Below the pieces are notes generated by a model, which did no database searches, was not told the DNA's origin, and saw only the letters and a program-made list of their open reading frames with translations. A DNA stretch of 64,000 bases. Source: Mobula hypostoma. Lineage: Eukaryota. Positions 18,903 through 27,203 of the stretch are shown here, piece after piece. The stretch is from NCBI RefSeq assembly GCF_963921235.1, contig NC_086097.1, forward strand, positions 157,482,001 through 157,546,000. The letters are read 5' to 3'. Within the stretch, counting starts at the first letter, position 1, and each line of letters begins with the position of its first letter. The translations under genes were made by a program, and so were the position numbers.

Positions 18903-21900
18903 TGCTTGTTACTTGTTACATACACCTGTCAGGGTGCATTCTGCAGATACCTTATAAGGTAACCGTAGCCTTCAGCCAGGAGCAGATGTCATCAGGTGGT
19001 TCCCAAACTTCACAGAGAGTTTCGACCATTAACCATGACACTCTCCAGTTGGTGGGCCAGCAGTGGTGGCCAAATTACTGCCCATCTGCTCCTGGCTTCC
19101 AGCTTCCCTCCTCTCGCCTACTCCAAATCCAACAAGAGGCTCGTTCTGCCTTTTCCCCCATCCTACGAGCTGCTTGTTTTTTCCTTTCATCCAGGCCCAG
19201 AGCTGACAACAATGCTGATTTGGGTGGGAAACCTCTGCAGCCGATCTCCACAGGGAACAACCATGCCTGCAATCACTTGTCTTTGCACTCCTGCACTAAA
19301 GGCTGGTACTTCAAGGCCTTTCTCTCGTGGGCCTCTTCCCATTCCTTCTCCCACACAGTACAATGTCCGGGTGTAGGATTGTGTGCACCACATCCAGGAA
19401 CTGCAGCCTCCTTTCCCACATTGACCTTCATCTCCCAGGACCTGGCCGTTCGCAGCAGATTGGGCTTCGATTGTTTGGTTACGAAAGGCCTGGCTCCCTC
19501 TTTGATGAAGGTGATGGCCTTCCTCAAATCTGTGCCAGCCATCCTCTTCTTGTATCTCTCGAGTGTCAGCAAGAGCCAGAAGCACTTTATCATGGCGCCA
19601 CCTATACCGTCCTTGAGTTAGAGCTGTTCTACACCCGGACAGTATATGAGCCAGTGTCCCCTTTTGACCACAGAGCTTACAGTTCGGGTCCTCTCTCATC
19701 CCCTATGTGTACAGATGTAATGGGGAAGGAAAGGTGTCATACATGGATTGCAAGAGGAAGGAAATACAAAGGGCTCCAGTCTCCATAACTGCCCATGAGA
19801 TCTTGCGCTTGGGCAGATCCCATTTTGTCCAGGCACCCTGGGACCCTTGTTCCACTGCCTTTGACATCCGCTTCTCTTCCTCATGGATCCGTACTTCTGC
19901 CTGTACCATGTCTTGCCTGTTCCTTATGCTTGCGTTTCCCCATTGCTGGAAGTAAACTGAGCCGAGGCCTTGTCGCCCGACGCAGGGGTTGCCAATGATA
20001 TCTCGCAGCTTCAGAGAACACACTGCCTCCTCCACAGCTGCGTTGGCTGCCCACTTGCGCCCAGATCTGGTTGTAACGCCTGCTTGCTTTACCAAGACGT
20101 CATTGAAATCTCTCAAGCTTAATAAGGCTCTGCATTTTGCAACCTTGAATTCCTCCACAACAGATGACAGGGGTAGCTGCAGTTGCTCAGAACGAATGTA
20201 GAGGCCCACTGAAGAGAAGCTCGGGGGAACTCCCAACCATCTTCGCGGGTGCTTGTTGGTTTTTCTCTCGATGCCCTCTACGGCAGTCATGGGGAACTCA
20301 TAAAGTGTGAAGAGCCAGAGAAGCCTGGGCAGAAGGCCGTATTGGTACAACCAGGTCTTGAATTTACCAGGAAGTCCGGGTTTGTCGATCTTCTTCAACC
20401 ATTCGTCTGTCTGCTTCATAGCATTAGCCCCATCTGTCAGTGACACACTAAACCACTTCCCCAAGCATTTTATCGGGTTATCTTCGATGGAAGGGATGAC
20501 CTCACCCTGAACTTGGAGGCTAAACTTGCTAATAACTTTGCCCTTTCTGATCACCATACACCTGGACTTCTTGGCTTTGAAGGACATCCTCACCCAAGTG
20601 GCTTCATTGTCCAGGGTTTCCAATACCCATCTTGCTTGGACATGTGATACAGTTGTTACAGTGATATCATCCATGAACCCTCGTAGAGACGACTGTACAA
20701 AGCCCGACTCCAGCGTCAGGCCGTGGGTTACATTTTCTGCTGCTGATATTAGGAGGTTCATTCCCATAGTAAATAGGGTGGGAGAGATGGTGCACCCTGT
20801 TGGAATCCCCTTCTGGAGGTCCTGCCAACTAGTTGCGAAATAGGCTGATGTAAATCTGAGTTTGAATCCTCCCAAGTAGCTAGTGATCATGTCTCGAATA
20901 GCCACTGGGATGTAGTACTGGTCAAGTCCTTCTAGGATGAGGTCATGTGGAATAGACCCGTAGGCATTCGCGAGGTCTAACGAGACAACTGTTAGGTTGC
21001 CTTTTTTCTGCTTGACCTCACGGATCAAATGGCTAATCATTGAGGTGTGTTCCAGACACCCCGAAAAGCCTGGAATACTGCCTTTCTGGATGGATGTGTT
21101 GATATAGTAGTTCTGCATCATGTAAGAACTCAGCCTTCTTGCAAGCGAGCACAGAAAAGAAAATCTTACATTCCACATCCAGGAGAGAAATTGTCCTAAA
21201 CTGGGCAATTGTGGAAGAATCCTCTTCCTTTGGAATAAAGCATCCCTCTGCCAATTTCCAACTTGACGGAATAGTACCTTTGGCCCAGATCCTTCTCATG
21301 ACCTTCCACAGCCTCTGAAGAAGTTTTGGGCATTTCTTTCCACCTTACCAGGTATGCCGCTTGGGCCTGGGGCAGCTGATGCTTTAGCTTTCCGGATGAT
21401 GTCCTGGATTTCCTATCATGTAGGCTCCTTCACATTCTGCTCAATTGATGGTTTCTCCAGTCTCCGCACAGCCCGATTGGTCCCTAGTCCCTGACCCCTC
21501 CGTGGGTCACTGTGCGCCTCCCGCAGGAGCTCCTCTACCTCTGGCTTCGAGCTGGATAGTATACCAGATTTTTGTTGGCCGAGGAGAGTCCTGGTGAAGC
21601 TGAATGGATCTCTCACAAACTGCGCTCGCCTCTTCTCTTTCTTCCTTCTTTGCCGTTGTAGATGTTCCGCCCTCCGGAGTTTGCACAGCTTTTCCCGCAG
21701 CATACTGGTTAAGTCCTTGATACCTTCTTTTTCAGCCGGTGAGCTGGTTTTAAACCTTTTGTTGAGCGTCTTTAATTCACCTCTCAAGCGACGAACCTCT
21801 TAGTTTCCCTCCTACTTAGTTGCTGCGGTAACTCGGGTTGGTTCTCCGCTCCATTGGGCAAAATTGTTCCTTGGCTAGATTGTACGCTATGACTGTCAGT

Positions 21901-22655
21901 GAGTCGATCTTTCTGTGCACTGGACCTGCTAAGGCAACTTCCAGGATGCCATCTAGATCATCATCCAACTGCATCCAGGTGATGTTGTCTGATGATCTAG
22001 GCCATTTGATCCTGTCTTTCCTTGACGAATGGATTGGGGTAGCAGAAGAGGAACTCACTTGATCTGTTGTTTGGTGCTGAGGTGACAAGTGCGGAGAGAT
22101 CTTCAGCTCTGTGGGGTGCTTCCCGGCTCGAATTCTCCTTCGTCTCACCGGACGCCAAGTCCGTGCACTGCACTTGGGTCACCATTGATCCACATCTAGA
22201 CCAGCTCTGATGTATCTTGAGCCCTCTGTTTTTGCAGACTTTCCCGCAATGACACCTTACCGTGAATTCCTCTCCGGTCAGTGTTGTTTGCTTTAGCTTC
22301 CTCGTAGTTGTGTTTCCTGTCCTGGCCGTTGCCGGCATGACCGTCCTGTTGAGTCTCTCATCCTCCCCCCGTCTCGGGAGACTCTGGGGGTATTGCTCTT
22401 CATGTTCAATCATAGCTTGAGTGGGGCCCTCTTGCGAGTGCTGCCCACAAGGTTGCTAGCCTTGTGAGCCTGTGCCAGTCTTTCCTGGAGGTCAGCTGTC
22501 TCTCCAGCGTCACCAACTTCCTCGGTTGTCATCCAGTCTTTTCTGGAAGCCACTGGTACAAACCAGAGATTACTTGTTATATACACCTGTTAGGGTGCAT
22601 TCTCCAGATACCATATAAGGTAACCGTAGCCTTCAGCCAGGAGCAGACGTCATCA
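18903..22655 (-). mobile_element. HERO-like non-LTR retrotransposon (RT + restriction-like endonuclease), near full length and frameshifted
   Basis: N-terminal zinc finger CHCGKVCKNRGLKIHQ. RT motifs LDLANAYGSIPH, GIPTGCTISP, FMDD. C-terminal CKLC...HILSGC knuckle, RWRHDKVL, and AHERKALKY (endonuclease partly deleted). 85-bp direct repeats at 18910-18994 and 22571-22655. Confidence 0.85.
18983..19044 (-). ncRNA. Putative hammerhead ribozyme with non-canonical strand order in the HERO 3' UTR
   Basis: Minus strand reads AGAGUGU-C-AUGGUU-AAUGGUC-GAAACUCUCU-12 nt-AACCAC-CUGAUGA. Stem III pairs 6/7, stem I pairs 5/6, GUC triplet present, stem II weak. Confidence 0.5.
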
Positions 22656-22722
22656 ATCTCAAAAGTCTCAAAAAAATTGCAACACTGACCAATTTGAATA
22701 ACCTCTTTTGAGAAACACTATA

Positions 22723-24284
22723 CAGTGCCTTGAAAAAGTATTCAGCCCCCAACCCTTTGAGTATTACAACCAGGGATTTGAATCAATTGAACTGAGCATT
22801 TGTATTTGTGAATCACATGCTCCTCTTTTTCACAGTAGTGTCCAAAAGCAGGGAAAACTGTAAAGCACAAAAACTTAAAAATTCAAAAACTGAAATGTCA
22901 GCAGTTCAAAGTATTCATGCTCAGCAGTTGGTTGAACAACCTCTCACAGCTATTACTGTTAGCAGTCTTTTTGGATAAGTCTCTATTAGCTTTGCACAAT
23001 ATGATGGAGCAAGATTTGCCCAATCCTTCCTGCAAAATTGCTCAAGCTGTGTCAGGTCAGTTGAGGAGTGGCGGTGGACAGAAATCTTGAGGTCTTGCCA
23101 GATATGTTCGATTAGGCTAAGTTCTGGACTCTGACTGGGCCACTCAAGGACATCAATTTTCTTCATATGAAGCCACTCCATGCTTGCTCCGACAGTGTGC
23201 TTTGAGTGCGTCCTGCAGAAGATGAACTTCCTCCCCAGTTTAAATTTTCTGGCAGAGCTAGCAGATTTTTATCCAGAATCTTTCTGTATTCAACAGGACT
23301 CATCTTCCTATCAATCCCAACCAAATTTCCAGTTACTGCTGCAGAAAATCATCCCCAGAGTATGATGCTACCTTCACCATACTTTACAGTAGGGATGGTG
23401 TTACCTGGCTGATGCGCAGTATTAGATTTACGTCACACAGACCACTCAGTGTTGAGGCCAAGAAGTCCCGCTTTAGCTCATCTGGCCACAAGACCTTCTT
23501 CCACATCTTACAGTATCTTAAGTGATATTTTGCAAAGTCCTTATGAGAAAGGATATGATTTTTTTTTAAAAAAGACAGAGCTTCTTCCTTGCCACTCTTC
23601 CTTTTTATGCGTGGTCTTGGAGCTTGAGGAGCTATGAACTTCATTTCCAGTTGCAGCCACTGATTTCTGCAGCTCACTGAGAGTGACTGTTGGTGTCACA
23701 GTAGCTTCTCTTACAAGTGCCATTCTCTTCCAGCTACCAAGTTTAAAGGAGTGGCCTGACCGAGGCAGAGTGGCTATGGTTTCAAGATGGGCTGCACCAA
23801 GCTCTGAGGTATGTTCAATGTCTTTGTAATGGTCTTGTACCCTTCCCCAGATTTGTCCTTCTCTATTATCATTTCCCTAACCTGTCTTGAATGCTCTTCT
23901 GTCTTCACCTTGATTTGATCTGTTGAAAATCTGTTATACTGTCGGACCTTACAAAGAGAGTAAGTACTTAACAGTATTCTTATGAATTCATTGAAAATAG
24001 ATGATCCTCCAATGTTCTACATCAATAAATTGAGTGAGTTGGTAAGGCAGTATACAGTTCTGCACCTGACGAAAATTAGCATCTTAATTCCACCTCACAA
24101 TTTTGGTTCTTAATTTTTAGTAAATTGTTGACATTTTTTGGAATCTTTCTTTTGATTTGAAATGATGCACAATGTTTTGCAGATGAGCTAAAAAAAACCT
24201 ACTTCAATATATTTTAAATTTAGAAAATATACCAAGTAAAATGTGAAAATAGTTGTGTGGGCTGAATACTTTTTCAAGGCACTG
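22723..24284 (-). mobile_element. Tc1/mariner DNA transposon, full length with decayed transposase
   Basis: Perfect 26-bp TIRs cagtgccttgaaaaagtattcagccc, TA on both sides. Fragments WPSQSPELSLIEHIW, WKKVLWPDE and ALVREATVTPTVTLSELQ. Confidence 0.95.
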
Positions 24285-27203
24285 TATTGTCCCCTACCTG
24301 ACTGATGTCTCAATTACTGTGACTGACTTAGCAGAAATATTCATACAATTGATTTTATCTTCCAAAACTTTGGAAATTGGTGGTCATATGTAATCACTAA
24401 CACCAACTCTACAAGGTTGCAGCAGTTCTGTATTATTTTCCCATACAGTTGCTGGATTTTTAGATTTTAAAAATTCTCCACAATAGCACAGCAGATAAAC
24501 ATGCTGTTTTAAGTAATTCCCAGTCATGTAGACCAGTGGATAGGTTGCAATTGACATTCTTATCTTGTGTTAGTTGGTTATATTTGTAGGTATCATCCTT
24601 GGTTCAATAAAACTCTTTGAATCAAATTATGTGTTCAAACACAGAACATAGAAACATAGAAGGCCTACAGCACAATACAGGCCCTTTGGTCACAATGCTG
24701 TGTCAAACATGTACTTACTTTAGAAATTACCTTGGGTTACCCATAGCTCTCTGCTTTTCTAAGCTCCATGTACCTATCCAGGGGTCTCTTAAAAGACCCT
24801 ATCGTATCCGCCTCCACCACCATCACCAGCAGCCCATTCCACACACTCACCACTCTCTGTGTAAAAAACTTACCCCTGACATCTCCTCTGTACTTCCAAG
24901 CACCTTAAAACTGTGCCTGCTGGAAATGCTACACACTGGAAATGCAGCACGGCTGGACACGCTGCCTTTCAGATGAAATTGAAACGAACAACTGCCTACC
25001 CTCTCACTGAGAATATGCATGTTCAAAGAGAAACTGGGATGTTCTCCTGGTGTTCTAGGCAACAGCAATCATTCAAACAACTGAACAATTTAGTTGGTCT
25101 GGTTGAGAGTCGGGGGAGTTGTTATGCTCTGTATTTGCAGTTTACCTAAGAGGTAACAGTGACAAAATGTATTTCAAAGTGGCCTTAAAGCAGTTTGAAC
25201 ATCAGAATATGAAAGATGCCTTCATCGGAAATTCATTCTCCCTTTCAATTAAAAGGCCTCTGCAGAAAAGCACAATTTCAAAAATAATGGTTACAAAATG
25301 GATTGCAAGTTTTCTGGTGATTTTAATAGCCAACCAAAGTGCCAACATTCATCATCTTTGCTTATATCTGTGGAATGACAAATTGGATGGAAAATGGATG
25401 ACCATCAGCATCGTCAGCAGCTTTGCGAGTGAAGAAAATTTGAAATGTGGCACACGAGATTGCAATCCTCAAGGACAAATGGAGCTACAAGCTTGGAGGC
25501 CACTTTGCTGAGAAATCAGTTAAAATTTTGAACAATAAACAAGTTAATGTTGTAGAGTTGATGGGTGGAAATAAAAGTTCAAGCCTGACATTGAGAGTAA
25601 GGAATCACTTTACTTACAGACATGTTTGACCTGCAGGGTCACAAGTGTATAATAACTTGTATTGTGCTGCAGATGGAATAGTATGAGTATGCTGTAAGTG
25701 TTGCAGACAACTTTAATTTCAAAACACTTCTCTGGACACGAAGTACACCATAACAGGATTGGATTATGCTTCCAAAATTCATAATGTCACAGGCAGAGTA
25801 TAATGTTCTGGTTCAGTGACTGCCATATTTAATACTATTGGTCTGGGTTAGATATCTAGGCAAATCAGATAACAAAGTGAGCTCCAGTGATGATAGTTTG
25901 AACAATCAAAGCCCATCATCCTTAATTTTAATTACCTCTCACGGCCCTGGAAATTCATTTACACACTGAAAGTGTTTTGAGGGGTCATTAACTTAATCTG
26001 ATAATTTTATTTTTTTCCATATATGTTCTAGACCAGCTGAATATTCTCAGAATTTTCTGCTTTTTGTTCTAACTTTGAATAACATCAGGATTTTATTTTT
26101 TACAATGTTGAATTCAATTTGCATTGATCCAGTATTTGCAATCAGCAGTTCACTACCTAAACCTACTATTCATCTCATTAACTTGCTCAGATATACCTTC
26201 GTGGTGGTAATCAGCAGTAAGATAATGTCTTGGATACTTTTGGGAAGATGTGGGGGTGTGGAGCGGTGGAGGAGGGCGAGGGATGAGAACAAGACTTTTC
26301 CAAAAACACCTGAAATAAACCTTTGATTGGTGCTTGGTCAGCTGCCAAAATTCTGAATATTTCTGGCATTCAGAAACACTCAAGTACTATTAAAATAATT
26401 AGTAATGTTTTTACAGTTTGCACTATTAAAATTTAAAAAAAATTAATTCAGAAACAACTCTATACTTTTCCCCAATGAAATGATCAGAGTATCTGTCCCT
26501 GCCCAATCGGGTGGTTTGCTCCATTGAATTCCATCCGTGAAAAGTGGCAAAGTTCTGCACTACAAATCTACCTCAATGCTGGACTATGCTGGGCGAAGAT
26601 GAACTGTCACAACCATGGGATTTCTATAAAAATGCATACGTTTTCAAATTGTGAACAATCAGCAAACAATTCCAGTACATAAAACTTTTAAAAATAATTC
26701 TCTCTTTATATAAAAGTATGCAGAAATAAATGTAGCAACTGTTGACAATTTGAAATAAAAATAGAAAACTTTCTTTAACCTTGAGTTTAACTTGTTTGAT
26801 TTTTTGATCTTCATTTTTTTTGGGGGCGGGGGCAGAATAGTCATCTGCTCTCAATTCTAAACTTCTCTCTCCAAATTTATAAATGCACCTTCTCAGAATC
26901 TGGCTGATGGTGAATCTTCACACTGAGAGAGTGATATACTTTTTATAGATCAGGTTTAATTTAAATATGAAAGGAAGTTAAGGATGCCCAGATTAGCTCC
27001 TTACGAGCAAGAGGGGTGGGGACTAGAAATGGAGCACACAAACAAAGCCATTGCTCCAGAGCTAGTCCGGAGGTCTGCCATTATTATCAAATGCACTGTC
27101 CTCCAAAAATGAATTTATGAAGCTAGATTATACTGGATAAGACAAAGGTTAAGGACTAAATACACTGAAAATAGAAAATACTATTCAGAAATCAGGCAAC
27201 ATA

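Follow-up and report, generated by a model that had tools for sequence, protein, structure and literature searches.

The window analysed here is a stretch of 64,000 nt from Mobula hypostoma (NC_086097.1, positions 157,482,001 to 157,546,000), and all coordinates below are positions within it. It carries the following retrotransposon copy and its parts.

18905..22655, minus strand: RLE-type non-LTR retrotransposon, one decayed copy of slightly more than one unit (sequence comparison within the genome)
22570..22655, minus strand: 5' terminal repeat, a second copy of the final 86 nt of the 3' UTR (94% identity with 18909-18994)
22414..22569, minus strand: 5' UTR, directly abutting the 3'-end sequence, with repeated short hairpins kept in relatives
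19075..22413, minus strand: broken ORF with an N-terminal zinc-finger-like motif, reverse transcriptase (RVT_1, E=9e-20), zinc knuckle and restriction-like endonuclease
18905..18919, minus strand: 3' terminus of the inserted copy, including a short repeat tail; the fixed start of reverse transcription about 125 nt past the predicted cut (3' ends of copies)

The order of domains, a reverse transcriptase followed by a zinc knuckle and a restriction-like endonuclease, is that of RLE non-LTR elements, and the C-terminal profile of the ORF matches R2 structures (E=3e-14). We take the endonuclease motif to be of the PD-D/E-x-K kind, and the assumed label HERO-like follows the original prediction. 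A first look for the 3' end of the element gave 1,356-1,496 candidates in the 3.48-Gb genome. The copies have diverse flanks and no fixed target site, as expected of the HERO clade. About 45 nt of the endonuclease region that other copies have are absent from the window copy near 19355. Immediately upstream of the LINE copy lies a DNA transposon-like element with 35-nt terminal inverted repeats (22717-24290), presumably of the Tc1/mariner type. In the 5' UTR (22414-22569, minus strand), a short hairpin with a GAAA or GAGA loop is repeated three or four times. These units are conserved to about 70% across distant relatives and may serve in cap-independent translation or in the binding of a protein. 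Matching hairpin units also occur downstream of the motif described below in eight related loci (L082, L083, L084, L086, L090, L100, L104 and L130).

Just past the ORF stop, which reads at 19077-19075, the original prediction had placed a hammerhead-like motif at 18983..19044 of the minus strand. Re-reading of the window recovered all of its letters: the 5' strand of stem III at 19044-19038 followed by C17 at 19037, with the predicted cut between 19037 and 19036; stem I formed by 19036-19031 with 19001-18996; GAAA at 19023-19020; a 12-nt linker; and CUGAUGA at 18995-18989. The functional unit is larger than the segment originally flagged and extends over 18974-19097, as follows.

19083..19097, minus strand: closing helix P0, 5' strand, in the last ORF codons (15-nt perfect inverted repeat)
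19059..19082, minus strand: hairpin Pb, adjoining P0 and stem II without a linker (86% paired)
19054..19058, minus strand: stem II, 5' strand, first letter G10.1, supplied from upstream rather than following A9 (90% paired)
19047..19052, minus strand: interaction helix I, 5' strand (NC helix of the kink-turn)
19044..19046, minus strand: kink-turn, non-bulged strand (3n, G2n, A1n)
19037..19043, minus strand: stem III, 5' strand, with U16.1 at 19038 and C17 at 19037 (98% paired in the four core-side pairs)
19031..19036, minus strand: stem I, 5' strand (96% paired; double changes in 5/5 pairs)
19024..19028, minus strand: stem II, 3' strand, last letter C11.1
19015..19023, minus strand: G12-A13-A14 and stem III, 3' strand (C helix of the kink-turn)
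19009..19014, minus strand: kink-turn, bulged strand (3-nt bulge, G1b, A2b, 3b)
19003..19008, minus strand: interaction helix I, 3' strand
18989..19001, minus strand: stem I, 3' strand, and the C3-A9 core (CUGAnGA)
18974..18988, minus strand: closing helix P0, 3' strand, directly after A9

The ORF stop (19077-19075) falls within hairpin Pb. P0 and half of Pb are coding sequence including the stop codon (19075-19097), so that a translating ribosome would open the junction that these helices form. In four related loci (L107, L128, L136 and L141), the motif lies instead 300-700 nt past the ORF. Past P0, the 3' UTR of the window copy contains a near-palindromic hairpin (18946-18963, minus strand), which is perfect in one subfamily allele.

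The secondary structure and its pattern of conservation are shown by comparison of an alignment, built from sequence only, of 43 relatives (43 of 54 loci after 11 near-duplicates had been dropped), the rows of which are related, so that all counts overstate independence. A model of seven helices was 86.4% paired in these rows versus 60.1 +/- 0.8 in shuffles, and double changes numbered 424 versus 136 in shuffles, while slid controls were 34-45% paired. P0 was 74% paired with double changes in 11/11 pairs. A four-way junction is formed by P0, Pb, stem II and the core, and it has zero linker nucleotides in at least 31 of 52 loci, as scored by a greedy script. The 5' strand of stem II lies about 20 nt upstream of the cut and pairs with the strand before GAAA; it is 90% paired and covaries in the 43 rows. 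Its pair next to G12, 10.1-11.1, is G-C in 36 rows and G-U in 3, and a G occupies position 10.1 in 72 of 76 hits of the covariance model described below.

The strand that follows the 5' strand of stem II pairs with the strand that precedes the 3' strand of stem I and forms interaction helix I (91% paired, double changes in 5/5 pairs in the 43 rows, and at least 5 bp in 48/52 loci). Between helix I and stem III, all four core letters of the kink-turn consensus are present in 33 of 43 rows, as compared with at most 6 in 500 shuffles. A kink-turn is defined by a C helix, a 3-nt bulge, tandem G.A and A.G pairs and an NC helix (PMC5061560), and the sequence found here has each of these. When folded by free energy, three loci (L055, L082 and L106) had a nested frame of P0, Pb, helix I and stem III; the frame of the window copy was shifted, and that of L097 lacked helix I. 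Given this nested frame, stems I and II are pseudoknots.

The conservation of the motif was followed in relatives collected with a profile of 26 C-terminal domains, which yielded 79 metagenome loci at 35-78% identity. The same search gave three stray pieces in GTDB contigs and no relatives in viral contigs. The stray pieces (L158, L159 and L160) are animal-type LINE fragments in short contigs of three bacterial assemblies and are probably contamination. A descriptor found the core in 52 of the 80 loci examined, and a covariance model recognised the motif in most of the loci from related RLE LINEs (71/82), in line with the expectation that the CUGAUGA/GAAA core would be conserved beyond the window. 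Among the 11 loci missed by the model, seven stop short or do not include the end of the ORF, and four have no motif despite at least 350 nt after the ORF (L139, L144, L156 and L157). Model R1 had not been given stems I and II, and these were 92.4% paired in its 76 distinct hits. In the 13 hits outside the training set, 58/65 cells of stem II and 61/62 cells of stem I were paired.

The core letters were tallied over 77 hits, one of which (L114:3270) is probably spurious. U4, G5 and A6 were each found in 72/72 hits, G8 and A9 in 71/71, A13 in 73/73, G12 in 71/74 and U16.1 in 72/74, while each of the four letters occurs at position 7, and position 17 has C in 30 hits, U in 24, A in 20 and G in none of 74. 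The training set had been picked on core letters, so that these tallies are partly circular; those of N17, N7, 10.1 and the held-out hits are not. With the same caution for the letters used in picking, the core agrees with the hammerhead consensus C3 U4 G5 A6 N7 G8 A9, G12 A13 A14, A15.1-U16.1 and H17. Deviants comprise C3U in one lineage (L101, L102 and L107, with G8 kept) and G12A in three copies. Hammerheads do not admit G at position 17, and G10.1-C11.1 is their most conserved pair after A15.1-U16.1 (PMC3088659). That G is excluded at 17 while position 7 is free corresponds to the catalytic pattern of hammerheads.

Stems I and III, the core letters and the block order bear out a hammerhead-type core in S-G-C order at the 3' end of an RLE LINE. 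The order itself, which had been thought undescribed, has already been published as type SGC (Eckert, Friedrich, Weinberg and Weinberg 2023, PMC10085705). In that paper, cleavage of type SGC (HRIMA-1 and variants) was validated in vitro, a helix linking stems I and II is required, CUGAnGA and the two neighbouring stem strands were assumed to be one unbreakable block, and no SGC RNA was found in genomes of known organisms (PMC10085705). Our motif resembles type SGC in the S, G, C order of blocks, all core letters, the double pseudoknot, the short linker from stem I to stem II and the helix joining the other strands of both stems. In contrast, stem II follows A9 in type SGC, whereas here the C block is split and the motif has a four-way junction and a kink-turn consensus; the supplement of Eckert et al. 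gave 0 hits for 'k-turn' or 'kink'. Moreover, the present motif sits in animal LINEs, unlike the SGC RNAs reported there.

Since block C (stem I strand, CUGAnGA, stem II strand) is not intact, we do not file the motif as type SGC proper. It is predicted to work like a type-SGC hammerhead but lacks one defining feature, and it is therefore a variant rather than a member. The strand after A9 continues into P0, and N10.1 is not contiguous with A9, at which a hammerhead would have at most one or two inserted letters. An extra base between A9 and G10.1 was reportedly described by De la Pena and Flores in 2001. An unpaired letter at the start of the 5' side of stem II is tolerated in natural hammerheads (PMC4209133). 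We found no hammerhead in print with a backbone branching at A9/G10.1, and activity of the present motif is for this reason extrapolated. As anticipated by the original prediction, standard models miss the motif: Rfam models gave no hit in the window at the gathering score, nor in four loci with the threshold relaxed to E=5. In open-access papers and the main text of preprints, we found no description of a hammerhead in 3' UTRs of HERO or other RLE elements, nor of a split-core or kink-turn hammerhead. Within that literature, the split-core wiring in the 3' UTR of an RLE LINE is new, and the S-G-C order is known.

Several retroelements share parts of this arrangement. Penelope-like elements (PLEs) and retrozymes likewise carry a hammerhead in terminal direct repeats (PMC4209133, PMC7229834, bioRxiv 10.64898/2026.07.22.740005). 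Their hammerheads are of type I or minimal and belong to GIY-YIG elements or non-coding repeats, whereas the present LINE is an autonomous element of the RLE type, and its motif has a large fold of the monomer type. A circle followed by more-than-unit reverse transcription has been proposed for PLEs (PMC4209133), and circles have been demonstrated for retrozymes, mainly ligated in vitro by RtcB (PMC7229834). With R2, the element shares an RLE-type protein, a structured UTR and a self-cleaving RNA tied to the element, which here is a candidate (PMC12222951, PMC13725137 and PMC6155905). The R2 ribozyme is HDV-like and 5' in a site-specific element; the present motif is of another ribozyme class at the other end, and its element, unlike R2, has diverse flanks and terminally redundant copies. 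The HERO clade, in the passages that treat it, has an RLE endonuclease, mostly lacks site specificity and occurs in fish, lancelet and sea urchin; the same passages mention no ribozyme or terminal repeat (PMC4640811, PMC9004415). The named relatives of our element come from fish, lancelets and bivalves, and the HERO label fits the published description of the clade.

The window copy is itself decayed, with one mismatch each in stem I and stem III. Compared with 30 family copies, it departs from the family majority at 19036, 19028, 19018 and 19007, all four of which are paired positions, and its putative ribozyme is probably weak or dead. As predicted, the family majority restores the stems and pairs fully, and the stem I mismatch can be attributed to CpG-type decay, since position 19036 is G in 19/30 family copies and A in 10/30.

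Genomic copies of the element are terminally redundant. Among 40 copies picked on the 5' UTR alone, 36 carry the 3'-end sequence again upstream with the same 3'-5' junction, 22 extend past the predicted cut and 17 are long enough for a whole upstream motif. The junction is identical in all spanning copies, with no tail and no added letters, and the 3' ends of copies lie at one site about 125 nt past the cut. In some genomic copies two putative ribozymes flank one unit, and L081 has two motifs. The 5' terminal repeat of the window copy begins 42 nt after the predicted cut, so that this copy has one whole motif only. The same 3'-to-5' continuity was seen in seven relative loci (E<1e-9) and a second motif copy at the 5' side in five relative contigs; assembly collapse may contribute to both counts. 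At subfamily sites, the two repeats of one copy were concordant in 20/24 cases (13 expected) and were discordant in 3 of 9 copies. This terminal redundancy fits a circular or multimeric RNA template. No nested pattern was present in the 5' flanks read, and self-targeted insertion was rejected as the usual source of the repeats.

The tally of 5' ends leaves aside fortuitous matches to the pattern at +116 to +119, as well as three misaligned copies (L029, L069 and L073) and a duplicate (L022). Of 21 ends within 60 nt of the cut, three fall at 0, +1 and +2, where 0.5 would be expected (p ~0.015), which is a weak sign of cleavage; a relative contig, L096, also starts at +1. None of 14 short first-lap copies ends at the cut. 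Upstream of the motif, 5' ends are 3.4x denser on the second lap (2.4 per kb) than on the first (0.70), a difference confounded by truncation that is already raised in the 5' UTR and by loss of long repeats through recombination. Within the 3' UTR, truncation rates are similar on both laps (4/14 on the first and 11/28 on the second). A sharp rise of truncation exactly at one lap was not supported, as 12/27 copies end in the last 200 nt of the 5' UTR.

We propose that the motif is probably a self-cleaving hammerhead of non-circular, SGC-class topology with a new wiring. The CUGAnGA block is split at A9/G10.1, with A9 leading into P0 and G10.1 provided by the upstream strand that follows Pb, and P0, Pb, stem II and the core converge in the four-way junction. 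Helix I ties together the far ends of stems I and II, and the kink-turn would fold helix I back along stem III. The geometry of the active site could survive if P0 is stacked on Pb, and stem II on the core by way of the strand that runs on into G12; we infer this stacking of stem II, the kink and cleavage after N17. The retention of G10.1-C11.1, although its strands come from a different place, supports the hammerhead reading. A transcript with two motifs would be cut twice and release one unit RNA, whose ends could rebuild a nicked ribozyme clamped by P0, stem II, helix I and stem III. The clamped ends might then be ligated into a circle, or the nick might be crossed by the reverse transcriptase, and reverse transcription from the fixed site about 125 nt past the cut for more than one lap would give rise to the terminal repeats. 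Either ligation or passage across the nick would allow most copies to cross the cut and the repeats to be renewed in many lineages.

For this reading as a whole, an animal clade of autonomous, protein-coding RLE LINEs with an active rewired hammerhead, a circle of clamped ends, cap-free translation and target-primed reverse transcription of more than one lap, we estimate a probability of roughly 0.4. The covalent circular intermediate, taken alone, falls just short of even odds. Several observations weigh against this reading. The 22 copies that pass the cut call for re-ligation, jumping of the reverse transcriptase or weak cleavage. The three discordant copies are not predicted by a pure monomer circle. 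The pile-up of 5' ends at the cut comprises three copies only.

A rival reading is a linear template of more than one unit, in which the ribozyme would cut only to trim read-through 5' ends or to aid translation. The repeats would then be renewed when the reverse transcriptase jumps between templates or when copies insert in tandem, and no covalent circle would form. We consider this unlikely but a serious contender. HDV-like ribozymes serve R2 in 5' trimming or translation (PMC13725137, PMC6155905), hammerhead cleavage can promote translation (PMC13725137) and the R2 reverse transcriptase jumps between templates. The three 5' ends at the cut, the start of L096 at +1 and the discordant repeats would likewise suit a linear template. 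Evidence against it is that all spanning copies have the same 3'-5' junction without tail or extra letters, and that 22/40 copies pass the cut. The higher density of 5' ends on the second lap also speaks against it, a pattern that loss of long repeats by recombination could produce as well.

Alternatively, the motif could be a recognition fold that does not cut, a hammerhead-derived or look-alike double pseudoknot bound by the element protein to start reverse transcription, perhaps together with a host L7Ae-type protein at the kink-turn. R2 proteins, among them R2Tg, bind a pseudoknotted 3' UTR (PMC12222951), which offers another ground for conservation, and kink-turns are protein-binding sites (PMC5061560). 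The location of the motif in the 3' UTR, the strand after A9 held in P0 and the passage of most copies across the cut site would all agree with such a fold. Its main argument, a missing stem II, fails, since the stem II formed with the upstream strand keeps G10.1-C11.1, and the exclusion of G at 17, position 7 being free, matches the catalytic pattern. Cutting and binding are not mutually exclusive, and we judge a fold that only binds to be rather improbable.

An ordinary type-SGC ribozyme as first drawn, perhaps as an alternative fold, is very improbable even though the block order agrees. Stems I and III covary in the 43 relatives, as the original prediction implied, but its stem II, formed by the strand after CUGAUGA with the strand before GAAA, does not: it is 49.5% paired versus 47.4% when shuffled, its core-proximal pair forms in 4/43 rows, and in held-out hits 27/62 cells were paired as compared with 58/65 for the stem II from the upstream strand, so that it was rejected. 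Chance resemblance has a negligible probability. The loose core pattern alone does occur by chance in at least 117 viral stretches, but a stem score of at least 10/12 was reached by 0 of the 80 examined versus 48 of 52 LINE loci, and stems I and III covary in the relatives. Among these 80 viral loci, none had the same wiring and one gave a weak model hit (E=0.0015).

If the motif cuts, the range of non-circular hammerheads, so far RNA-only environmental sequences, would come to include thousands of genomic copies in animals. A branch would then be possible within the catalytic core at a link regarded as fixed, in which case current descriptors miss a class. Retrotransposition through a circle and over more than one unit, so far only a proposal for Penelope elements, could also be tested in this element, a LINE related to R2, whose proteins are used to insert genes. 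Moreover, a self-clamping fold with a kink-turn might be useful as a protein-switchable ribozyme or as an RNA-circularising part.

Two further observations concern the copies and their relatives. On contig C18, two pairs of copies in opposite orientation (L024 with L025, and L018 with L022) have private variants in common, and L018 and L022 also have a flank in common, which suggests duplication or conversion. Furthermore, distant relatives such as P0092, P0093, P0097 and similar ones carry Pfam PF02902 beside the reverse transcriptase, which we take to be the Ulp1 protease domain as in NeSL-type elements.
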